From: a virus
Taxonomy: Duplodnaviria; Heunggongvirae; Uroviricota; Caudoviricetes
Reading direction: 5' to 3' (one strand)
Length of the DNA stretch: 36,183 nucleotides
Virus record (IMG/VR): IMGVR_UViG_2551306525_000009
Below are positions 1 through 31,491 of the stretch, piece after piece. The position numbers were made by a program, and so were the translations under genes. Positions within the stretch are counted from its first letter, which is position 1, and every line of letters starts with the position of its first letter. The notes beneath the pieces are model-generated. The model was not told the DNA's origin. It did not search any database and worked only from the letters and a program-made list of their open reading frames with translations.

Positions 1-33
1 AAAGAGTTCCTTTCAAATTTAAATAAGCGTTAA

Positions 34-56
34 GCCCACCACTCTTACTGGTGGGC
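34..56 (-). terminator. stem-loop downstream of the hok-like ORF (GCCCACC-N9-GGTGGGC) followed by an A/T-rich tract on the minus strand
   Basis: perfect 7-bp inverted repeat read directly from sequence; T-rich stretch follows on the reverse complement. Confidence 0.4.
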
Positions 57-135
57 CTCAATTTAAATTTGGGTGCCACTTCGACCATACCCAGGCAACC
101 GATTGACGGGGGATTGCTCCCCCGTCGCGGTTTCC

Positions 136-276
136 TTACTGCTTACACTGTAAGAACGCCGCAAACTCCGCGCCCCAGAAGCTCATCCGTATTTCGCACA
201 GCGAACCATGCAATATCCAGATGATGAGGATTACCGTCACGCAGAACGTGATGGCTGTAAGCGATTTTTGCGACAT
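136..276 (-). CDS. Hok/Gef-family small membrane toxin (type I toxin-antitoxin), 46 aa; not in the ORF track because it is under 60 aa
   Basis: manual translation MSQKSLTAITFCVTVILIIWILHGSLCEIRMSFWGAEFAAFLQCKQ; one TM helix then SLCEIR...AAFLxCK, matching the conserved Hok tail (HokA ends SLCELH...AAFLACK, from memory); AAGGAG 8 nt upstream of ATG. Confidence 0.6.
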   Translation of the reverse strand: MSQKSLTAITFCVTVILIIWILHGSLCEIRMSFWGAEFAAFLQCKQ

Positions 277-466
277 AGCACTTGCTCCTTTTCCGGAGAG
301 GCGCTAACCTTTCACTTGCTTAGGGTAGACGGTTAGGGCCTCGGTTAAACAAAAGTGTTTTCCGGGGCCTTTCCACATCTGGCCTTCGGGTATTCCCTCC
401 GACCATCAGCCGAAAGGCACCCGCGCGTAATCTATCGCTTTTTTGTTACTCCGGCAATTCTGCCTG

Positions 467-727
467 TTAATTCTGAGGTAAAGGCAAACTCATCTGATTG
501 TTTCCCCTGTGTGAAGCTGGCAGCTCATGCCACGGGATACCTTCTGATGAGTGAACGCCGGAGGCGTGTTTCGATGTGAATTTATGGAAGGCTTCCAGTG
601 TTGAGAAGCATACGCCGCATTCCAGGTTGTTACACTGGTAATACTTTTGCCGCACGGTGTTTGAATCATTTTCCGGACGACTGGTGCGGATACGGGCAGA
701 TGCGCCACAAAGCGGACAACGGAACAT
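467..727 (-). CDS. ogr: late gene transcriptional activator Ogr/Delta family (zinc finger)
   Basis: MFRCPLCG...YQCNNLECG matches the Cys4 zinc-finger N-terminus of P2 Ogr / 186 B; position adjacent to D. Confidence 0.85.
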   Translation of the reverse strand: MFRCPLCGASARIRTSRPENDSNTVRQKYYQCNNLECGVCFSTLEAFHKFTSKHASGVHSSEGIPWHELPASHRGNNQMSLPLPQN

Positions 728-769
728 AGCGACCTCCCTTAACGTGGTGCTGCCGCTATTCTAAGTTCT

Positions 770-1870
770 TCACTCTGTTTCCGCTATCCATTCCGGGATT
801 TTTGCCTCAAGCTCAAGCTGCGTGGTAAAGCCGCTGTTATCAATGGTGTGCTCGGCTTTTGCAATAATCCAGTCCTGATTATCAATCTCGCTTTTAAATC
901 CTGTTACCGTGCCATGCATTTCGGGATAGAGTTCTGCGCGTCCACGCGCCAGCGTGATGGAGAATGATGCGGCTCCGCGTTGTAGCTGCTGCCACTTTGC
1001 CGCCGCTGCGCGTCTTGCTGCCTGCTCGTTCTGATAAGTCTTGCGTAACACAAACACATTGCCTTCCGCGCCCTCCATATAATCACCTTCACGGCTGCTG
1101 CTTTTCTCCTTTTTCGGTTTGCGGCGTTTCACGCTGACTTTTTTCTTTTTCCCGTAATTAAGATCAAGCCAGTAGGCGCGTACACCTGTATACGCCTCGC
1201 GGTCAGCAATGCGAAACTGATGGCGATCGCCGCTGCTGCGTGTGATGGCAAACGATGGCAATGGTTTTCCCTGCGCGTTCACGCCACCACCTGGCATAAT
1301 GAATAACAGATTACCGCTTTTTACCGTGGTGATTGCGCCCAGCATTTCCGCCATGCGCGTAAGGAAGGACATGTCACTTTCTTCGGTCTGGTCGGCGTGG
1401 TCGATTTCGATATCCATCAGCATTTCGCTGATTTGCGGTTTCAGACCGTACCGATGAGCGATGGCGGATACCACTCGCTCAACGGTCACATCATGCCAGG
1501 ACACTTCGCGCTTGACGTTAAATTCATCCCGAAAATCTGCGCTTCTGGCTGAAATGGTCAGTCTGTCGGGAGGTCCTTCATGAGCAATTTCATCAACAAT
1601 GTAAGTGCCTTTTTCTGTCAGCGGTTCGCCTTTCCAGCCAATGAGAACCGTCAGGCGAGCGCCCCGTGGCGGCAACTGCAACTGACCATCAGCATCATCC
1701 AGCGTGATGGTGAGCTGGTCTGCTTCAAATCCCCGGTTGTCGGTCAGTGACAGGCTCATCAGGCGCTCTGCCACGCCGGACAGCGTTTTACCCTCGGCGA
1801 GAATATCAAAATCCGGCATTTTCACGGGGTCTGTGCCCTGACTGAGCAATTGCATGGTGGTGTCGGTCAT
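770..1870 (-). CDS. D: tail protein D (late control gene D)
   Basis: similarity to P2 gpD (LSLTDNRGF, RLTISARSADFR, REGDYMEG, TIDNSGFTT blocks); start chosen at internal ATG with GGGAGGGA RBS (ORF track extends to 2002). Confidence 0.85.
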   Translation of the reverse strand: MTDTTMQLLSQGTDPVKMPDFDILAEGKTLSGVAERLMSLSLTDNRGFEADQLTITLDDADGQLQLPPRGARLTVLIGWKGEPLTEKGTYIVDEIAHEGPPDRLTISARSADFRDEFNVKREVSWHDVTVERVVSAIAHRYGLKPQISEMLMDIEIDHADQTEESDMSFLTRMAEMLGAITTVKSGNLLFIMPGGGVNAQGKPLPSFAITRSSGDRHQFRIADREAYTGVRAYWLDLNYGKKKKVSVKRRKPKKEKSSSREGDYMEGAEGNVFVLRKTYQNEQAARRAAAAKWQQLQRGAASFSITLARGRAELYPEMHGTVTGFKSEIDNQDWIIAKAEHTIDNSGFTTQLELEAKIPEWIAETE

Positions 1871-2027
1871 CTGCTCCCTCCCTGTGTGGCATGGTCGCAT
1901 GTGCGTGCGGAGGGGGTTACTGCTTTTTGTTGTCGCCGTGGCGGGAGAACGGCGCAGGGGTGAGATTACGCGCGTGGTGGGTGATGATTGTTGCCGAATC
2001 ATTTAACGGATACAAGGGGCTGAAGCT

Positions 2028-3212
2028 ATGAGTGAAACTCGTTTTCATGGTGCCCGTGTTACGGAAAATACCGACCTGGTAACAGCGATTAACGATGTTG
2101 ATTCCAGCGTTATCGGTATCGTGGCAACGGCGGATGATGCGGACGCGAAGCTGTTCCCGCTGAACAAGCCCACACTGCTGACCCGCGTCAATGACGTGCT
2201 GGGAAAATGCGGAACAACGGGGACGCTTTATCGTGCGCTTAAGGCCATCGCAGACCAGGTGAGCACAAAGGTGATCGTCGTTCGCGTGGCTGAACACAAA
2301 GAAGAAGACGAAAAGACGCAGGATCAACTGGTTATCGGTGGTTCTGAGGATGACGGCAGCTATACGGGGATGTATGCGCTGCTTGTTGCAGAGCAGGATG
2401 AAAGCATCGGATACCGTCCGCGTATTCTGGCCGCGCCGGAGCTGGACACGGAGGCGGTGACAAAATCCCTGTGCGTGATTGCGGGTAAACTGCGCGCATT
2501 TGTGTATGCCTCATGTCACGGCTGTAACACGATGGCTGAAGCGATTACCTACCGCCAGAAATTCAACGAACGTGAAGTGATGCTCTTATGGCCGGACTTC
2601 ATCGCCTACAACCCGAAAAGTGGCGAAAACGAAACGTTCCCCGCGCCTGCTTATGCGTGCGGCCTTCGTGCGTACATTGACCATGAGCAGGGCTGGCACA
2701 AATCGCTGTCCAACGTTCCGGTTAAAAATGTGCTGGGGATGTCGAGGCATGTGTTCTGGTCGTTGCAGGCCGAAGACAGCGATGCCAACAGCCTCAACAA
2801 CAAAGAAATCACGACCATTATTCGTCGCAACGGGTTCCGCTTCTGGGGCAACCGCACACCGGAAACGAACGCCTACATTTTTGAGGTGTATACCCGAACC
2901 GCACAGGTGCTGGCTGATTCAATTGCGGAAGCGCAGTTTGAAACCATCGACAGTCCACTGACGCCTGCGAACGTGAAGGATGTTATCAGTGCCATCAGGG
3001 CAAAACTGGATTCACTGGTGACTGCCGGGAAACTGATTGGCGCGGAGTGCTGGTATGACGTGGTGGATAACAGCACCACGGATTTACGTCAGGGGCGTGT
3101 GCGTATTCGCTACAAATATACGCCCGTTCCGCCACTGGAAGACATGGAGCTTTACCAGACGTTTACTGATGAATACTTTGAACCCGCATTTGCGGTGCTG
3201 GGAGGTGCCTGA
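2028..3212 (+). CDS. FI: contractile tail sheath protein FI
   Basis: 394 aa, size and sequence character of the P2 FI sheath family; followed by the tube gene with ATGA-type overlap. Confidence 0.9.
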   Translation: MSETRFHGARVTENTDLVTAINDVDSSVIGIVATADDADAKLFPLNKPTLLTRVNDVLGKCGTTGTLYRALKAIADQVSTKVIVVRVAEHKEEDEKTQDQLVIGGSEDDGSYTGMYALLVAEQDESIGYRPRILAAPELDTEAVTKSLCVIAGKLRAFVYASCHGCNTMAEAITYRQKFNEREVMLLWPDFIAYNPKSGENETFPAPAYACGLRAYIDHEQGWHKSLSNVPVKNVLGMSRHVFWSLQAEDSDANSLNNKEITTIIRRNGFRFWGNRTPETNAYIFEVYTRTAQVLADSIAEAQFETIDSPLTPANVKDVISAIRAKLDSLVTAGKLIGAECWYDVVDNSTTDLRQGRVRIRYKYTPVPPLEDMELYQTFTDEYFEPAFAVLGGA

Positions 3213-24144: not shown

Positions 24145-24525
24145 TCAAAAAGAAGACTGGAACTCTTCTGCTCTGCGCTCAATTTCTGCCATGTAGGATG
24201 TACGGGCTAACTCATGCGCATTGGGTGTCATAATGCTGATTAGCTGATACTTATCTGGATATAAGAAATGGCGGGAGTAAACAAGATAACTGTTTGATTT
24301 ACGCGAGGCGGCAGGTAGCTTTGCAGGCCACGGCTGTTCATCAGGTAAACGAATGTGAATCTTAAAAACAAAAGAATCACGAAGACGCCCGCTATCTTCC
24401 CACTGCCCTTCGTTGCCAAAGACTGAGGGTAAAGATCCGCCGTTTTTCCATGACTGCAAAGCATGTGCATATTTGCGAGCAACTGCGGGGAGTTCTATGT
24501 CATTGTGGACAGAGACTTTAATCAT
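24145..24525 (-). CDS. YafO-like toxin-domain protein
   Basis: 126 aa; C-terminal LISIMTPNAHELAR...AEEF resembles E. coli YafO (LIAILKPEPHKLAR...AEAF, from memory); also SLPSVFG vs VLPDIFG and SYLVYS vs AHLVYC. Confidence 0.5.
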   Translation of the reverse strand: MIKVSVHNDIELPAVARKYAHALQSWKNGGSLPSVFGNEGQWEDSGRLRDSFVFKIHIRLPDEQPWPAKLPAASRKSNSYLVYSRHFLYPDKYQLISIMTPNAHELARTSYMAEIERRAEEFQSSF

Positions 24526-24534
24526 GGCCCTGCC

Positions 24535-25128
24535 TTAATGGAACGTTGGATCTTTAAGGCCCAGCTTTTTATGTTCACTGCGGATAAGTGCGCGAACCTG
24601 ATCGGCGGTAACACCCAGATCAGCATCTGAAGTTTTCTTCGGCACATGCGTGCTTTCAATGAAGGATAAAATATCTTCAATCGTATAGCGGAGCGTCGCA
24701 GCGGAACGAGCAAAAGCGACAATCTCTTTTCTCAGTTCCGCGTTACTTTCAGGTACGCTTTTCAGCGCAACCCTTGCAGCCTCGACAAAACTTGCACATA
24801 CCGCAATATGACGGAAAAGGCTTTCAAACCCTTCCTGAGTCTCTTTTTTCTGATTTTTCAGAATAATAGGGATCTGCTTTTCTTCCCATTCGATGCGAAG
24901 GTTTGCCCTGTGTGTCTTCATCCTATCAGCCAGGTTAAGCATATAACTGGTGGCCTCATCAATAGGAAGGTATGCCACAGAATCCTTTACGTCCTGGAGG
25001 GATAGCGTAGACGTACTGTGCCGGGAGATTGATAAGTCATGATGCACAATGCTACTGGCAGGAACAGGGGCGAGAGCCACCGCCAGCGCTGCGGCCATAG
25101 ATGTTATTTTATTTTTTTTACTGCTCAT
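24535..25128 (-). CDS. hypothetical protein, 197 aa, N-terminus resembles a signal peptide or TM anchor (MSSKKNKITSMAAALAVALAPVPASS)
   Basis: ORF with GGAAAGG RBS; 9 nt upstream of the YafO-like gene; not recognisable as YafN/RelB-type antitoxin. Confidence 0.55.
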   Translation of the reverse strand: MSSKKNKITSMAAALAVALAPVPASSIVHHDLSISRHSTSTLSLQDVKDSVAYLPIDEATSYMLNLADRMKTHRANLRIEWEEKQIPIILKNQKKETQEGFESLFRHIAVCASFVEAARVALKSVPESNAELRKEIVAFARSAATLRYTIEDILSFIESTHVPKKTSDADLGVTADQVRALIRSEHKKLGLKDPTFH

Positions 25129-25217
25129 AATTGCCTTTCCTGCCAATAATCGTGAACCACTGCCGGAATGATAGCGCAAAAAATCACCCGCTGAAACGAA
25201 TTATCCTTGCGGCAAAA

Positions 25218-25304
25218 CTAGCCCGCGTCAACCTCATACCACGCCAGCGTCGATTGATAGTTTTGTGCCGCCTCGCGTAATGCCTGATAGTCAATTTTGC
25301 TCAC
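25218..25304 (-). CDS. putative 28-aa micro-ORF (VSKIDYQALREAAQNYQSTLAWYEVDAG), GTG start overlapping upstream stop
   Basis: AGGAGG 7 nt upstream of GTG; GTGA overlap with stop of the 174-aa gene; identified manually. Confidence 0.3.
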   Translation of the reverse strand: MSKIDYQALREAAQNYQSTLAWYEVDAG

Positions 25305-25825
25305 TGGTTGCCTCCTTTGTGTTGCGTCAGCTCTTCCTGCGCCTGCATCATGCGATTGACCTGAATGCGTGTGCGTCGAACGGCAAAATTAAATTGAAAC
25401 ATGAGCCGGAACATTTCTGAGGCTTCCGTGTGAGCATCATGGAGAGGTGACAGGCGGTACAGTTCTGCCTCCGTAGCTTGTTGAATCAATGACAGATCAA
25501 ATTGAAGTGCGGGTCTGGTACATTTTGCACTTCTGGCAGCAAGCTCCGGCATCAGTTTCTTAACGAAGGTGTTTTGCACCGCTTTGTTGAGTTGTGTCTG
25601 CATCCAAATCGCAAATTTCAGCGAACGCATAAGTTTGATAGCCTCGGGCAGCGGCAGATAGATCATGCTGGTAGATTTGGGTGGTTGGTGAATCATCTTC
25701 ACGGATACGCGATTTCGCAGCGTTCGGAAAATCGTGTTCCCAACAACAGCTTCTACGGATACAGGACAGGGAGCCAGACCAGCCCGCAGTGCTTCTTTCA
25801 TTGGCATGTATTCGTATTTTTTCAT
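25301..25825 (-). CDS. hypothetical protein, 174 aa
   Basis: ORF with GAGGA RBS; no family recognised. Confidence 0.55.
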   Translation of the reverse strand: MKKYEYMPMKEALRAGLAPCPVSVEAVVGNTIFRTLRNRVSVKMIHQPPKSTSMIYLPLPEAIKLMRSLKFAIWMQTQLNKAVQNTFVKKLMPELAARSAKCTRPALQFDLSLIQQATEAELYRLSPLHDAHTEASEMFRLMFQFNFAVRRTRIQVNRMMQAQEELTQHKGGNQ

Positions 25826-25885
25826 CGTGTTTTCCTCGTGCGGGGCGACAGTGCACCCCGATAAAATTAAAAGCCGTCAAATTCG

Positions 25886-26221
25886 TCATTCATGCGTTTT
25901 TTCTTCATGGTCTGTCACTTCTCCCCTGATAATTTCATTGCACAAATCCACGCACTCATTGCAGATGTAAACAGACGGTCCGGCAATCACCTTTATGACT
26001 TCGTGCTGGGATTTATTGCAGAAGCTGCAATAAATCGTCTTCTTGCCTGAAGTCCATGTTTTGCTGATTTCGCCAGACATCAGTTGCTTGATGTCTTTTT
26101 CACGACGAAGAACTATCTGGCCACATTCAGCTATTTTTTGGATGTTGACATTTTCTTCTTTCGCCAGCGCTTCCATTCGCTCAATCAGTCGCTGCGCTTT
26201 TTCTCTGTCAATGTGTTGCAT
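25886..26221 (-). CDS. small protein with ClpX-type C4 zinc-binding domain (ZBD) at its C-terminus
   Basis: [39 protein letters not shown] is near-identical to the E. coli ClpX N-terminal ZBD ([39 protein letters not shown], from memory); GGGGG RBS. Confidence 0.8.
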
Positions 26222-26255
26222 TGTGTCCCCCTTGTTTATGTTCCCGGATTAAAGT

Positions 26256-26279
26256 CATCAGGGCGGATGCGCCCTGATG
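26256..26279. other. hairpin between parR and the ClpX-ZBD gene (CATCAGGGCG-gatg-CGCCCTGATG)
   Basis: perfect 10-bp stem read directly; may separate transcription units or stabilise mRNA. Confidence 0.45.
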
Positions 26280-26284
26280 TTGTG

Positions 26285-26596
26285 TTATTCGGGAAATAAC
26301 GCCCGGATATTTCTGGCCATCTGACTGGTTATCTGTGCGGTTGATACTGGCTGTGACGCGGGGCGTTCTGTCCTGGTTTGTGTCACCGATAACGCCTCAT
26401 CGTCAGCCCATGCAGCCAGTCGGTAAGCCTCTGCCGGATTCATTTTCAGAAGTGCCAGCCCGGCCAGAAAAGCCACGCGTTGGCCGCTTTTGCGGGCTTC
26501 TGGTGTAAGGCTGTCCAGCCAGGCGCATGCTTCGCCTTCGTTCTTGACGGCGGCGGGCTTCAGATAGAAACTTATCCGTCTGGTTGGTGTCGTCAT
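26285..26596 (-). CDS. parR: ParR-like ribbon-helix-helix centromere-binding protein
   Basis: RRISFYLKP...LDSLTPEARKSGQRVAFLAGLALLKMNP...IRALFPE parallels plasmid R1 ParR (from memory); AGGAG RBS. Confidence 0.7.
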   Translation of the reverse strand: MTTPTRRISFYLKPAAVKNEGEACAWLDSLTPEARKSGQRVAFLAGLALLKMNPAEAYRLAAWADDEALSVTQTRTERPASQPVSTAQITSQMARNIRALFPE

Positions 26597-26600
26597 TGGT

Positions 26601-27560
26601 TTACTCCTTGTCCATTGCGTACAGCCCATTAACCAGAGCAAACTGTGGCACCCCGTCCGCGATGAAAGTCGCATTAACTCCGCAGGCTTCGCGGATAGCG
26701 GGTGCCACAATCTCCGCCCCTCCACCGACAACCATCACCCGCCCGTAACCCGAAAAACCCGCCAGCGCGCGGATCACGCGTTGTTTCAGTGTTTCTTCCT
26801 TTTCACGAATAACCTCCATCAGGCTGGCGTAATGCGCGTCATTGTGGATGTGCTGGCGCAGCCAGGCTTCATTATGGCGATGTTCGATAATGGTATTGGC
26901 GATGTGGTGACTGGTGCGCATACCGTTAGTGGCCATCACCGACAGTACGGCATCGGCCATCAGAGAAACGCCTACGTGTGGATCGCAAAACACCTGGCTG
27001 ATACCTGCCAGTTGCCCCTGAACCTTTGCCACATCCAGCGTGGTTCCGCCCAAATCTACAATCAGCAGGGATTCAAACGGACTCATGTCAGCCAGTGCCT
27101 TAAAGCCAGCCGGAATGGATTCAGGCATAACCCGCACGTTACGGATAGTGAATGCTTCGCCGTTCTGGTACTCCACCGGGCGCATAACGTTCGCTTTTTT
27201 GCGGTTGATGTTGGCCATGTCCGGCTGTGCGTTTGTGTCGAAATACTCGCTCAGTGGCAGGGTGACAACCACATCCACCTCCTGTGGCGTGATGCCTGAT
27301 TTGACCAGCGCGTGATGAATGGCAATGACATTCACATCGCTGTACTGGTATTGCGTGTCGGTCGTCTGGACAAAGCGATCGCTGACCGGATCAAAACCAT
27401 AGCGCACGCCATCAAGCATGTAGTTCGCAGGCTGCGAGCCACCGAACGGCGCAGACCATTCCGACTTGAAGCTGTTCGGGCTGATGGCGTTGCGGCGTTC
27501 GCCGTTCTCAGTCCATGCCAGCTTGATGTTGGTGGAGCCGTCGTCGATACAAATTTTCAT
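26601..27560 (-). CDS. parM: ParM/StbA-family actin-like segregation ATPase
   Basis: MKICIDDGSTNIKL (phosphate-1), LIVDLGGTTLDV (phosphate-2), VVGGGAEIV (adenosine) motifs; 319 aa. Confidence 0.8.
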   Translation of the reverse strand: MKICIDDGSTNIKLAWTENGERRNAISPNSFKSEWSAPFGGSQPANYMLDGVRYGFDPVSDRFVQTTDTQYQYSDVNVIAIHHALVKSGITPQEVDVVVTLPLSEYFDTNAQPDMANINRKKANVMRPVEYQNGEAFTIRNVRVMPESIPAGFKALADMSPFESLLIVDLGGTTLDVAKVQGQLAGISQVFCDPHVGVSLMADAVLSVMATNGMRTSHHIANTIIEHRHNEAWLRQHIHNDAHYASLMEVIREKEETLKQRVIRALAGFSGYGRVMVVGGGAEIVAPAIREACGVNATFIADGVPQFALVNGLYAMDKE

Positions 27561-27596: not shown

Positions 27597-27627
27597 GGGA
27601 TTCTGAAATCCCGTTTTTGCCTGTTTT
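27597..27627. repeat. repeat unit 1: GGGATTctgaAATCCCGTTTTTGCCTGTTTT (internal 6-bp palindrome), between parM start and A stop
   Basis: read directly; second near-identical copy 74 bp away. Confidence 0.6.
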
Positions 27628-30463
27628 ATGCGCGCTTCATATATCGCGGCGCGTTTTTTTGCTCATTTATGGGATTTGTGAATCCCGTTTCTGTCTGTTT
27701 TTTGTTTCCACTGGTCAGGCCACCCCGCAGCAGGTCTGCTTTGCGGCGGGCGCGTTCAGTGGTTTCACTGATTCTCTGTGCGTGCTCTGCGTCGCGGATG
27801 GCGCGCAGCATGTCAGAAAGCACGGTAACGGGTGTTTTCATGGTGTTCTGGTCCTGCTGAAGTGTGGATGCCAGGCGTGCGGCGGCTTCAGGGTCTGATG
27901 CCCCCAGCTGTGCCAGATAGCTGGCGACCGGGTTATGGCGGATCTCCGTGCTGCTTACATCGTGATTACGGCTCAGGCGCTGCCAGAGCTGCGTGATTCG
28001 GCTGTCCGGGCGGGTATCCGGTTTGCGTACAATTTCAAATCCCTGCGGTGCAATGATGCTGCCGTCAACGTACAGACTGCCGCCCCGTAACAGGTGCTGC
28101 ATCTGTTGTTCACCGATATGCAGGCCAAGGGATTCAGCAGACTCCCGCCATTCTTTAGCGAGTAATTCGTGGTTATCAGGCAAAGGCCGCTGCTGTTTGC
28201 GGCTCTGTGTCCAGCTCTGCATTTCATCACTGTTGTTTTTTGCCTGTTTGTCACGCAGCGAACGCATCAGCGCCCGGCGTTCGTGCCGTTTCAGTGAGTG
28301 CAGCCATTCGTTCACTTCAACACCGTCAGGGATCTGCGGCCACGGTGCTGGCCGTTCTTCCGGCTGTTCTGTCCCGTTGTTGTCCGTTTCCTGTACACGG
28401 GGACAGTTATTGCCACGAGTCCAAGGGGCGGCAGGGCCGCCCTGAAGGTCAAAACCATTTTCGCGGGCGCTGTCTTCCGCTTCCGGTTTACGTCTTACCA
28501 GCTTCCAGTTATCCGGATGCGTGCACACACGGGAGGATTCCCCGATGAGTGGTGACCAGATCCCGTAAATCTGTACGCTCTGTTCGCCGTAATCGTTCAG
28601 CTCATCGGCGAGGTCGTAGGCGGTGCGAATCAGGTAGTCCTTGCGTGGAACAAGTACGCCGCCCTGTTTCTCTATATAGGTGGCAAAACATCCGGCATCA
28701 GCGGCAGCGAGTACCGCATCCATTGCGTCATCCTTCAGCCGTTGCGGGCCTTCCGGGTTGCGTGCCATCTGGCTGGCAAGGCGGCGGAGTTCACGCCACA
28801 CCTGACGGGAGGGGATGCCAAAGAACTGGAACTGGCGGACCCGGTGAAGGCGCGCCCAGCCGATGGCGCGCTCCACGCTCTCGGCCATTGATTTTCCGGT
28901 TTCGTGGTCAACGCGTGGTTTGCCCGTTTTCGGGTCGATGCCATCCACGGCGCGGCTGTCCAGGTTCTTTCCGATGTAGGTGGCGATGTAGCTGGTTGGC
29001 GTGCCTTTTGAGCCGTCTACATACTCCGCCTTAAAGCGCGGAGTAATATCATCACCCAGCTCGTGACGATCTTCCTGAATGGCAATATCGCGGGTGTGGG
29101 ACACAATGGTGTCGATTTCTTCCGGATGGGCAAAGACCATCATATGCCAGTGTACGGTGCCGTCATGGTGAGGCTCCACCGTGCGGATGCCATACCAGCG
29201 CAGGCCGTCGCGGTTCAGTTTTTTGCGGACCGCCGCAAAAAACGTGTTAACCAGGTAGTCGCTGGAGTCGCGCATGGTGGCCCCGTTCCATTTGGGGTTC
29301 GGATGACCGTTCTCCGTTGTTGCGTGGTATTTTGACGGGCAGGTGACAGTCAGAAACACCGCTTTGTCACCACGGGCTTCGGCCAGAAGTTCCAGCCCCT
29401 TCATGGTGGCCATCATTTCTGCCTTACGGTGAACCGGGTTACTTACTCCCGCGTAATACACTGTCTCGAGATCAATCGTGAACCCGTCTTCGTTTTCCAG
29501 CATGAAACTTTTCAGGAAATCGCGTGTTTTCTCGCGCTGTGCGCGAAACTCGCTTAACGCGTCCTGGCTCAGATAAGGCGATGTTTTTCTGGAAACCAGA
29601 CAGGCGGCGCGGAGTTGTTCTTCTCTCCACTCGCAACGTAACAGCCACAGTTTGCGTTTCCACCAGTCCGCACAGGTCAGGCGAAGGATTGCGCCCGGCA
29701 GCAGTTCCGTATCCGGTTCGCTCTTGTTCAGGGCTTCGTAATGTGGCGGCATGATGTGCAGGCGTAATGCGATACGAGCCAGCATCCGGTAAGCCTTCAA
29801 CATTACATCCATGGTCAGCTCGCCATCTCTGGCACCAAAGCCATCGCAGAGTGTTTCGAAGGTGCTGCTGAACATCGCCGCGGTCATGGTGGCCAGCGTC
29901 TGTATCTGGTGCTTGTTGAGCTGCGGCAGGTAAAGCAAATCGTCCAGGCGTTCGCGCCCGGCAAGGGAGCGATAACCCGGTGTCAGCCAGCGTCCGTCAG
30001 TGCGATCCAGACGTTCGAATATTTTGCGCAGGGGTCCGCGTGCATAGCGTTCCGCCTGCCAGCTCTTTTTACCTTTCTGGCGATCGGCTTCCTGTTTTTT
30101 GCGCAGGAAAGAGAGGTGGCGGCTCAGTGGTTCACGCAGATAAACAGGTAGTGCCTTTAGTGTGGCAAAGGCACGGGCTACCGGGTCTTGTTCTGTTGCC
30201 CGGCGCTTACTGATGATGCTCTGTGCCAGCTTTTCACGCTGTCCGGCTTCCTCAAGGGATGCCATGAGTTTTTTACCCATGGCGGATTGTGCGAAAAAGG
30301 CTTCTTCCTTCGCTTCCTGTTCTTCCTGTGCCCTTTTGTCCGCCTCAAGGTAGTAACGGATGGCGCGTTGCAGGTCGGTTTCAGTTTCCTGCCTGCGCTC
30401 CGTAAATCTGGCCGGATCAATGGCTGGCCGTGGTTCATTCCAGCTCCATGCAAACTCGCTCAT
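27626..30463 (-). CDS. A: replication initiation protein A (rolling-circle initiator, P2 gpA family)
   Basis: TVTCPSKYH, VEPHHDGTVHWHMMVF and YIATYIGKN active-site blocks as in P2/186 gpA; start either ATG 30463 (ATGA-coupled) or GTG 30490. Confidence 0.85.
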   Translation of the reverse strand: MSEFAWSWNEPRPAIDPARFTERRQETETDLQRAIRYYLEADKRAQEEQEAKEEAFFAQSAMGKKLMASLEEAGQREKLAQSIISKRRATEQDPVARAFATLKALPVYLREPLSRHLSFLRKKQEADRQKGKKSWQAERYARGPLRKIFERLDRTDGRWLTPGYRSLAGRERLDDLLYLPQLNKHQIQTLATMTAAMFSSTFETLCDGFGARDGELTMDVMLKAYRMLARIALRLHIMPPHYEALNKSEPDTELLPGAILRLTCADWWKRKLWLLRCEWREEQLRAACLVSRKTSPYLSQDALSEFRAQREKTRDFLKSFMLENEDGFTIDLETVYYAGVSNPVHRKAEMMATMKGLELLAEARGDKAVFLTVTCPSKYHATTENGHPNPKWNGATMRDSSDYLVNTFFAAVRKKLNRDGLRWYGIRTVEPHHDGTVHWHMMVFAHPEEIDTIVSHTRDIAIQEDRHELGDDITPRFKAEYVDGSKGTPTSYIATYIGKNLDSRAVDGIDPKTGKPRVDHETGKSMAESVERAIGWARLHRVRQFQFFGIPSRQVWRELRRLASQMARNPEGPQRLKDDAMDAVLAAADAGCFATYIEKQGGVLVPRKDYLIRTAYDLADELNDYGEQSVQIYGIWSPLIGESSRVCTHPDNWKLVRRKPEAEDSARENGFDLQGGPAAPWTRGNNCPRVQETDNNGTEQPEERPAPWPQIPDGVEVNEWLHSLKRHERRALMRSLRDKQAKNNSDEMQSWTQSRKQQRPLPDNHELLAKEWRESAESLGLHIGEQQMQHLLRGGSLYVDGSIIAPQGFEIVRKPDTRPDSRITQLWQRLSRNHDVSSTEIRHNPVASYLAQLGASDPEAAARLASTLQQDQNTMKTPVTVLSDMLRAIRDAEHAQRISETTERARRKADLLRGGLTSGNKKQTETGFTNPINEQKNAPRYMKRA
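27671..27701. repeat. repeat unit 2: GGGATTtgtgAATCCCGTTTCTGTCTGTTTT, inside the 3' coding end of gene A
   Basis: read directly; candidate parC-like centromere/operator or part of the replication origin. Confidence 0.6.
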
Positions 30464-30849
30464 GGCTGGTATCCCGTCACGCGCTGCCACTCCTGCGAGA
30501 AGATGGCGGAAAGGCGGTTAAATTCAGCGGTGTATTCACTCAGCGAGGCACACCCGCCAGCAGTGCGATGCGCCAGCATTGCCGCGAATACGGAGGCCGG
30601 GGAGTCGTAATACGCCAGCAGTGATTCGCCGTGTGGTGTCAGGCAGTGCAACGCCAGCCCGTGTGGTGTGAAGTCCACGCGGTAGCAGTCGTCTACTGTG
30701 AAATAAAGGGTGTCCGCATTCTCCGGTTTTGTAGTGCGTGCTCTGTTGTCACGACCACGGATGTAAAGATCAAATAATCCCTGAAGAACGGGAGCCAGAC
30801 GGGTGTCCTGTGTGCGCACCCATCTTGTGAAGTCATGAGCGTCAATCAT
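30460..30849 (-). CDS. hypothetical protein, 129 aa, stop overlapping A start
   Basis: ORF translationally coupled to A. Confidence 0.5.
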   Translation of the reverse strand: MIDAHDFTRWVRTQDTRLAPVLQGLFDLYIRGRDNRARTTKPENADTLYFTVDDCYRVDFTPHGLALHCLTPHGESLLAYYDSPASVFAAMLAHRTAGGCASLSEYTAEFNRLSAIFSQEWQRVTGYQP

Positions 30850-31162: not shown

Positions 31163-31366
31163 CGTGTATAGTAAGTTTTGAAAACTCACCATCCAGAGGT
31201 GGAAAACTCGGGGTGGTGAGACGTACAGGGTTTCCACAACCGGCTATACACGAACCCGGCCCGACCGAAGTCGGCCCCATACGCCCCACCATAATTCTGA
31301 CGCGAAAAAGACGTGGCGATACGGTACGCACAAAAAAACCGCTGGCGCGGTTGTGCGCGTGTATAG
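31163..31366 (-). ncRNA. candidate cis-regulatory RNA region: 9-mer CGTGTATAG at 31163 and 31358 with its complement CTATACACG at 31244
   Basis: three copies read directly, allowing mutually exclusive pairings; located in the 5' UTR of the 76-aa ORF within a 367-bp non-coding gap. Confidence 0.3.
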
Positions 31367-31491
31367 TCAGCGGGGTGGAAATCCCGGCACCCGTTTTATG
31401 AGGTGCAGCGGAAATGTAACCTGACTGATTGCGGCATGGCAAGCGGTTTTTTTGTGAGAACGGCATACTAAAAAATCCTGATGCTGCTCCG

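Follow-up and report, generated by a model that had tools for sequence, protein, structure and literature searches.

The DNA analyzed here (hereafter the window) is the whole 36,183-nucleotide stretch of IMG/VR record IMGVR_UViG_2551306525_000009. It is a P2-like E. coli prophage. Five complete E. coli chromosomes match its positions 1-800 with 100% identity, and phages Chuche, P88 and PhiR44_2 and Citrobacter phage Shae_phiSM do so with 95-97%. At its start the window holds the phage gene gpD, the late-gene activator ogr and, directly downstream of ogr, a short open reading frame that an earlier note on this DNA had described as encoding a Hok-type toxin. The coding features of this region are as follows.

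2002..770: gpD, at the window start, beside ogr
467..727, minus strand: ogr late-gene activator (Pfam Ogr_Delta, 52.4 bits), stop codon at 469-467, co-oriented with hok
136..276, minus strand: hok coding sequence, 46 codons plus stop, product MSQKSLTAITFCVTVILIIWILHGSLCEIRMSFWGAEFAAFLQCKQ (46 aa)

hok coding sequence and peptide

The hok ORF is preceded by the SD sequence AAGGAG at 290-285, 8 nt ahead of the AUG at 276, and residues 6-23 of its product form a single, N-terminal hydrophobic stretch. The peptide matched Pfam HOK_GEF (PF01848) over profile positions 5-42 of 42 with E=7.7e-7 and 29.1 bits (gathering score, 22 bits), and PHROG 251 ('MokW-like host killing') over its full length with E=8.7e-23. 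Residues conserved in >80% of Hok peptides (C16, T18, L30-C31-E32 and E41 in R1 numbering) were checked and are kept in the window peptide as C12, T14, L26-C27-E28 and E37; the peptide also carries V15 and I21. The Hok-family check that the earlier note had proposed was thereby run, and its description of a Hok/Gef-family type I toxin ORF of 46 codons with a strong RBS, encoding a single-TM peptide with the conserved Hok tail, is borne out.

An identical protein is entered in RefSeq as WP_000078918.1, Hok/Gef family protein. The closest named homolog is K-12 HokA, which is 40% identical by BLASTP and has in common with the window peptide an M-x-Q-K start and an AAFL-x-CK tail. HokA (NF007290) was also the best NCBIfam model, at 32.3 bits; this is far under the HokA equivalog cut-off of 89, so the window peptide is related to HokA but is not its ortholog. 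K-12 hokA could not be used as a leader comparator, since IS150 interrupts its leader. In all 12 divergent hok members that were aligned, the least similar at 61% identity, the ORF is intact and starts MSQK. Databases also contain truncated fragments of hok and variants with stop-codon read-through.

Position of hok within the prophage

The integrase gene ends exactly at the final base of the window. The chromosome of E. coli KOr024 matches positions 1-800 with 100% identity; beyond window position 1 it has a TM2-domain/zinc-ribbon gene, with its ATG directly adjoining the window on the outside, then a com-like gene and a DNA methyltransferase gene, and after these raiA. Every cargo gene has the orientation of ogr. 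The att core, ACAAAAAACGCGCCCGAAGG(C/T)GCGTTG, is the raiA terminator and lies ~1.55 kb beyond the window start. It is a 20-nt exact repeat inside a 27-nt near-repeat, and its second copy lies next to pheL, 87-113 bp past the integrase stop. The hok gene is ~1.6-1.7 kb inside the prophage, and neither junction falls within the window. In phages Chuche and P88 hok likewise lies between ogr and int, and the ogr-hok arrangement also occurs in PhiR44_2 and Shae_phiSM. The ORF had previously been placed at the prophage boundary, which does not hold, three prophage genes separating hok from the att core in KOr024. Two origins had been offered with that placement; phages P88 and Chuche confirm the one that made hok a cargo gene (although not one at the prophage end) and not the one that made it a chromosomal hok locus next to att.

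A terminator scan of the ogr-hok interval returned none, and together with the co-orientation of the genes this makes read-through into hok from ogr or from late transcription possible. PADLOC returned no model matching the Hok, TM2 or com proteins. The prophage holds three plasmid-style stability modules, namely hok/sok, a YafO-family toxin gene and parM/stbB.

Putative promoter and structure of the predicted hok mRNA

The features assigned to the hok transcript are listed below in 5' to 3' order, with element names taken from the R1 system.

429..457, minus strand: putative hok promoter (-35 TTGCCG at 457-452, 17-nt spacer, -10 TAGATT at 434-429)
30..422, minus strand: predicted full-length hok mRNA of ~390 nt, 5' end at G422, 3' end past the 58-32 hairpin
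408..422, minus strand: tac-like 5' element GGGUGCCUUUCGGCU, with fbi (86-71) and the ucb region (376-364) as alternative partners
362..376, minus strand: ucb-like box; pairing in the full-length form, GGCCCCGG (369-362) with CCGAGGCC (344-337); pairing in the truncated form, GUGGAAAGGCCC (376-364) with tac
274..306, minus strand: hok translation-initiation region (anti-SD CUCUCC at 300-295, SD AAGGAG at 290-285, AUG at 276-274)
105..126, minus strand: 3' stem-loop GACGGGGGA-GCAA-UCCCCCGUC, 9 pairs, 99.8% of cells paired, 4 of 9 pairs compensatory
71..86, minus strand: fbi-like fold-back element GGUCGAAGUGGCACCC, pairing partner of tac at the 5' end
32..58, minus strand: GC-rich hairpin with a 10-bp stem, without a U-tract, flanked by AAAUUUAAAU palindromes

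The putative promoter begins 10 nt past the ogr stop codon, and its -10 box sits 6 nt upstream of G422. Relatives from unrelated contexts have a box of the form TAGATT, TAGAAT or TAAATT at this same distance from GGGTGCC. The promoter matches 8 of 12 consensus positions and so escaped a scan with a threshold of 9; over positions 1-800 that promoter and terminator scan called no promoter and, as its sole terminator, a plus-strand reading of the 104-127 stem. Since the scan was silent on both this promoter and the Sok promoter described below, the two were assigned by homology and not by strength of consensus.

The leader was recognized by Rfam RF01794, which aligned over its whole length (model positions 1-157) to 422..263 on the minus strand with E=1.4e-10 and 51.9 bits, a score that falls under the gathering score of 59 (R100 scores 88.9). 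Although it is named 'sok', this model describes the hok-sense leader: on R100 it matches the strand of the Hok CDS and stops at the hok AUG.

Folding of 422..30 gave an MFE of -172 kcal/mol (z=-6.7), in which the first 15 nt pair with 86-71, and the hok SD and AUG are enclosed by the hairpin UAGCGCCUCUCC / GGAGCAAGUGCUA. Conservation of this fold was assessed in an alignment of 52 distinct relatives, 66% to 96% identical to the window at the nucleotide level and sourced from P2-like prophages, Stx and other lambdoid phages, an IncI1 plasmid, E. albertii, Salmonella and Citrobacter. In these relatives 95.7% of cells were paired in the window fold, against 36-45% in slid controls in which the pairing partners were shifted by 1-3 columns. 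Compensatory changes were present in 26 pairs, against 7.4±2.0 in shuffled alignments, none of 500 of which reached 26. The tac-fbi helix (helix 1) comprises 15 pairs, and 94% of its cells are paired across the 52 relatives; the tac-fbi and tac-ucb pairings were each compatible in essentially all of them. No ORF that keeps its frame or length among relatives was found in 1-135 or 277-466. Thus the ~400 bp around the ORF had rightly been called non-coding, and the long structured hok mRNA expected there is supported by the strength and covariation of the ~390-nt fold.

Both GC-rich hairpins noticed earlier (given as 34-56 and 108-124) are real, and their stems, 58-32 and 126-105 (of which 108-124 forms the core), lie within the predicted hok mRNA. 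The 126-105 stem-loop corresponds to the terminal 3' stem of R1, which protects processed, 3'-truncated hok mRNA (PMC9841398). The 58-32 hairpin folds on the minus strand with -18.1 kcal/mol (z=-5.0) and occupies the place where most relatives have the canonical hok terminator (AAACCCGCAG...CTGCGGGTTTTCTTTTT, ~21 nt past fbi); it is followed by the RBS of the TM2-domain gene. Similarity between the window and most relatives stops exactly after GGCACCC, at position 71. This break is a swap of the terminator for a TM2 cassette, the TM2-domain gene standing there in place of the usual terminator. The break was also considered as an att junction and rejected, since prophage genes follow past it in an identical E. 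coli genome and the att repeat falls in the raiA terminator. The junction variant, with a hairpin lacking a U-tract and the TM2-domain gene, was found in 91 of 5,426 complete E. coli genomes. As the terminator is replaced by such a hairpin, the 3' end assigned to the transcript in this variant, and with it the processing kinetics, is tentative.

Predicted rearrangement of the 3'-truncated mRNA

Loss of fbi is predicted to refold the 5' half of the message and to form one further element.

298..342, minus strand: predicted Sok-target hairpin of the truncated form, in which GAGGC (342-338) pairs with the dcb-like GCCUC (302-298)

When the RNA was folded without fbi (422..100), the 5' end shifted onto GUGGAAAGGCCC (376-364), GAGGC and GCCUC paired, and GCCUC was thereby drawn off the hairpin that covers the hok start. 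The loop of the predicted target hairpin bears a YUNR motif, CUAA, at 323-320. Pairing of the truncated-form helices was 99-100% compatible in the 52 sequences, and the GAGGC-GCCUC stem was paired in 100% of cells; these helices are almost invariant, and covariation therefore speaks neither for nor against them. The rearrangement as predicted reproduces the R1 scheme, in which the full-length mRNA has a tac/fbi fold-back and the truncated mRNA a tac/ucb stem and an SD/dcb stem. The mean unpaired probability from the SD through the AUG was 0.32 in the full-length form, 0.45 in the truncated form and 0.33 in the truncated form with the Sok-bound stretch blocked. This trend, up on truncation and down on Sok block, had the same direction in 10 of 12 relatives and was absent in 2 of 12. 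The change in accessibility is modest in these models, which suggest that truncation may unmask the hok start.

Leader region and mok

The mok frame of R1 opens at 116-118, 7 nt past GAGG, and extends for 70 codons over hok; its translation to the hok SD is required, and mok start mutations or premature mok stops abolish Hok synthesis. The positional homologue of the R1 mok SD, as given by the Rfam alignments of the window and R100, is GAGG at 342-339. Neither the window nor any of 53 relatives has an ATG, GTG or TTG start after it; in the window, the R1-equivalent mok frame meets a UAA at 322-320 and is then open for 59 codons without a start. Judged from these sequences, the absence of an R1-type mok looks like a trait of the whole subfamily rather than a lesion of the window copy. 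K-12 hokA differs in this respect, having an annotated in-frame mokA together with its IS150 disruption. With no mok frame after the conserved GAGG, the activation of hok proposed below is mok-independent, a mode for which no experimental precedent was found in the literature.

Predicted Sok antisense RNA

The elements of the putative antisense gene are on the plus strand.

282..310, plus strand: putative Sok promoter (-35 TTGCTC at 282-287, 17-nt spacer, -10 TAACCT at 305-310)
~318-374, plus strand: putative Sok antisense RNA of ~57 nt, with a single-stranded 5' tail of 13-17 nt, a hairpin at 335-371 and a UUUCC tail

The boxes TTGCTC-17-TAACCT of the window align, at equal position and spacing, with TTGCGC-17-TATCCT of R100/R1, which from the R1 literature we take to be the Sok promoter. 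The match to consensus is weak (6 of 12 positions) and was not flagged by the promoter scan; AGGTTA, the complement of the -10 box, is invariant in 52 of 52 relatives. The predicted RNA folds with -23.2 kcal/mol (z=-3.5), its 5' tail is complementary to the target loop, and the region of its hairpin (helix 4) shows compensatory changes among relatives. We infer the presence of Sok from positional homology only. A search of the leader for mok and sok elements, which the earlier note had recommended, thus located a putative sok on this basis and did not find mok in its R1 form, and the view that the hok mRNA is under antisense control is supported to the extent that the plus-strand Sok is accepted.

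Distribution and relation to known hok/sok systems

Using a match to at least 80% of window 1-800 as the criterion, 1,179 of 5,426 complete E. coli genomes (~22%) matched, with the ogr-hok arrangement kept, and the Hok peptide is encoded by 274 IMG/VR contigs. The hok cassette also occurs on an IncI1 plasmid, near ykgM, and in records of Stx and other lambdoid phages, where lom is its neighbour. An alignment-based search of the genome collection returned 7 loci, three of which (in Planococcaceae, Vagococcus and Xanthomonas records) are probably contaminants.

A 2026 preprint catalogued 44,248 Hok homologs and found them enriched in prophages (bioRxiv 10.1101/2025.08.07.668861). Its cluster 72 is labelled high-abundance, and two members, 72_1621 and 72_1589, were cloned for arabinose-induction toxicity assays; only three homologs are named there as non-toxic, and these two are not among them. 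The window peptide is 1 residue from sequence 1628 of this cluster and 2 from 72_1621 (44 of 46 identical), and some records of Stx and other lambdoid phages (L004, L093) have, beside lom, a copy from cluster 72 whose nucleotide sequence is ~80-83% identical to that of the window. With its peptide in RefSeq and its subfamily already catalogued, the window locus is an ordinary example of a hok family that is abundant and has been annotated before. The survey covers coding sequences only and explicitly leaves out mok, Sok and mRNA structure.

The window locus resembles hok/sok of R1/R100 in its conserved Cys, Thr, L-C-E and Glu, in an mRNA of ~390-400 nt with a 5' tac / 3' fbi fold-back, in a ucb box that sequesters GAGG, and in its terminal 3' stem-loop. 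The dcb partner and target hairpin of the truncated form (predicted in the window) and the position and spacing of the antisense promoter (putative in the window) are also alike. It differs in that its Hok has 46 aa and that of R1 52, with clear similarity only around the SLCEIR and AAF positions; in a leader 27 nt shorter, which places the hok AUG at +147 instead of +174; in having no frame after GAGG where R1 has mok; and in being carried by a phage, with a terminator without a U-tract, rather than by a plasmid.

The only phage-borne member with experimental data found here is hokW-sokW of the Stx2 prophage Sp5 (E. coli O157 Sakai), for which toxin and antisense antidote have been shown, and in which Hok is made on prophage induction and phage release is raised two-fold. 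Both are phage-borne E. coli hok/sok loci, and the PHROG name 'MokW-like host killing' covers both. HokW has 51 aa, belongs to a HokD-like cluster (cluster 35) and is carried by a lambdoid phage, whereas the window Hok has 46 aa, belongs to cluster 72 and is carried by a P2-like prophage; identity of the window locus with hokW of Sp5 was rejected on the ground of this cluster assignment.

Proposed mode of action and alternative explanations

[quoted passage not shown] Its weak constitutive promoter would give rise to a stable mRNA of ~390 nt in which tac-fbi pairing would lock the hok RBS in a hairpin and hide the antisense target. Slow 3' trimming to the 126-105 stem-loop would remove fbi, upon which the 5' end would move to ucb, the GAGGC-GCCUC target hairpin would form, and the hok SD and AUG would be loosened. 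As long as the prophage is present, the short, unstable Sok would bind the target loop and lead to cleavage of the duplex, and the freed GCCUC would re-close the hok site. Should the supply of Sok stop, which could come about by loss of the element, shut-off of transcription or large amounts of transcript reading through from ogr and the late operon, the 46-aa Hok would be made and would damage the inner membrane. The module could serve to stabilize the prophage, to assist lysis, as HokW does in Sp5, or to exclude other phages.

Whether cluster-72 loci, the window locus among them, run the hok/sok switch with no mok leader at all is more doubtful. It is conceivable, though we hold it only tentatively, that they dispense with it, that trimming of fbi would pull the dcb GCCUC off and thereby directly unmask the strong hok SD, and that Sok would capture GAGGC and return GCCUC, with RNase III cleavage in addition; the window variant could moreover read into the TM2-domain gene. 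If true, such read-through would link two small membrane proteins in one late-readable transcript in the minority variant represented by the window.

A different way of activating hok would be a leader ORF acting as a functional mok analogue. The candidate, AUG45 (window 378-376), opens 24 codons that end at a UAG (306-304) at the 5' foot of the hairpin enclosing the hok start, so that a ribosome terminating there would melt the hok-SD hairpin and couple Hok translation to that of the leader, while the Sok complement, ending 3 nt from AUG45, would block initiation. AUG45 has GAAGG upstream in most relatives, and in several of them (L008, L080, L084, L079 and others) the frame opened by AUG45 or GUG47 is that of R1 mok and extends over the start of hok. 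Where this ORF stops, how long it is and which frame it uses vary, however, even among relatives >90% identical, its end falling anywhere between -110 and +137 with respect to the hok AUG; AUG45 itself lies inside helices of both the full-length and the truncated folds, and pairing with the tac element accounts for its conservation. We therefore regard a coupling role for this ORF as unlikely and keep it as a minor rival.

The absence of mok could instead mean that the locus is a decaying or silenced relic, like several K-12 chromosomal hok loci, in which loss of mok has left hok untranslatable and the sequence persists by inertia. Besides the missing start after GAGG, the shifting frames and lengths of leader ORFs among close relatives, the dependence of Hok synthesis on an uninterrupted mok in R1, the truncated and read-through variants in databases and the breakage of K-12 hokA by IS150 would all agree with such decay. 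Yet the ORF is intact with its MSQK start throughout the divergent members aligned, the RNA helices are kept through compensatory changes, the Sok -10 box is invariant, and the ogr-hok unit is retained in ~1,179 complete E. coli genomes; mok, moreover, is absent subfamily-wide, including from members whose peptides were cloned for the toxicity assays of the preprint. Decay is on this evidence a very unlikely explanation. Still less weight, in effect none, attaches to the locus being a chromosomal hok gene that flanks att outside the phage. The window does begin merely 135 nt beyond the hok ORF, and the end of similarity to several phage genomes at position 71 is junction-like at first sight, but this break is the cassette swap described above, with the TM2-domain gene instead of the usual terminator, the att core lies further out in the raiA terminator with its second copy next to pheL beyond int, and phage genomes hold hok between ogr and int, by which a chromosomal origin is refuted.

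Implications for prophage stability and for the hok family

Read as an intact hok/sok cargo module, the locus corrects the map of this prophage, in which the interval between ogr and att is ~2 kb of cargo comprising hok/sok, the TM2-domain gene, the com-like gene and the methyltransferase gene. The occurrence of three stability modules together is relevant to the persistence of such prophages. For the family, the RNA anatomy of the cluster-72 hok subfamily (mok, Sok and mRNA structure) is laid out here beyond the coding sequences of the survey, and it contains no R1-type mok, an element deemed essential in the R1 model.

Prophage end and attachment site

The raiA terminator forms the att core, ACAAAAAACGCGCCCGAAGG(C/T)GCGTTG (positions 401-427 of record L098), and the prophage therefore lies between raiA and pheL. 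Immediately beyond window position 1 starts a gene whose 98-aa product combines a zinc ribbon with a TM2 domain (positions 2704-3000 of record L001); the ribosome-binding site of this gene falls within the window (5-11, minus strand), and the gene stands in place of the canonical hok terminator seen in most relatives. With no promoter evident in the 70-nt gap ahead of it (window 1-70), the TM2-domain gene may depend on read-through from hok or ogr for its transcription. Among 5,426 complete E. coli genomes, 91 contain this junction variant. Beyond the TM2-domain gene, before the chromosome is reached, come a com-like zinc-finger regulator and a DNA methyltransferase, the latter a PADLOC MTase_II match of 213 bits (L001 1438-2514).

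Stability genes and small RNAs within the prophage

Plasmid-type stability genes lie in a variable region on the minus strand (window 24145-27560), situated between gpA and the head genes, and none of the four listed below gpA was matched by PADLOC.

Features of the variable region and the early/immunity region (window coordinates)
27626..30490, gpA, bordering the variable region
26601..27560, minus, ParM/StbA actin-like ATPase
26285..26731, minus, Plasmid_stab_B/StbB protein
25886..26221, minus, ClpX-type zinc-finger protein
24145..24525, minus, YafO-family type II toxin
31209-31406, minus, C4 antisense RNA and IsrK, early/immunity region

Counting hok/sok, there are three modules of the stability or addiction type in this prophage. 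Rfam matches exceeding the gathering score were obtained in the window for C4 antisense RNA (31209-31296, 77.3 bits) and for the Hfq-binding sRNA IsrK (31332-31406, 63.5 bits). RF01794, titled 'sok antitoxin (CssrC)', matched plasmid R100 (L099) at 177-353 and the window at 263-422; this model covers the leader on the hok-sense strand, starting at +1 and ending at the hok AUG, rather than the antisense Sok strand, and its strand calls thus indicate hok mRNA.

Distribution and variation of the hok cassette

Public databases contain Hok variants from this subfamily of 59-81 aa, in which the stop codon is mutated and the C-terminus extended, together with many partial calls of 25-27 aa (extended or partial peptide records P0002, P0005, P0007, P0011, P0013-P0015, P0018 and P0040-P0050), suggesting decay of some copies. 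Near-identical copies of the E. coli phage cassette in records named Planococcaceae MAG, Vagococcus sp. and Xanthomonas pisi (L005, L006 and L009) most likely reflect assembly or sample contamination rather than true host range.

The same cassette, from promoter through fbi (the 3' fold-back element of hok mRNA), adjoins lom in lambdoid phage records, namely Stx phage Lyz12581Vzw and a linear O157 'plasmid' record bearing lom, and further copies were found on the IncI1 plasmid pUMNK88_Hly and beside ykgM.

hok copies outside the ogr context (DNA records)
L004, 1566-1706
L093, 1670-1810
L092, 1669-1806
L094, 1668-1808

Across these settings the hok cassette thus behaves like a self-contained mobile unit whose borders are sharp.
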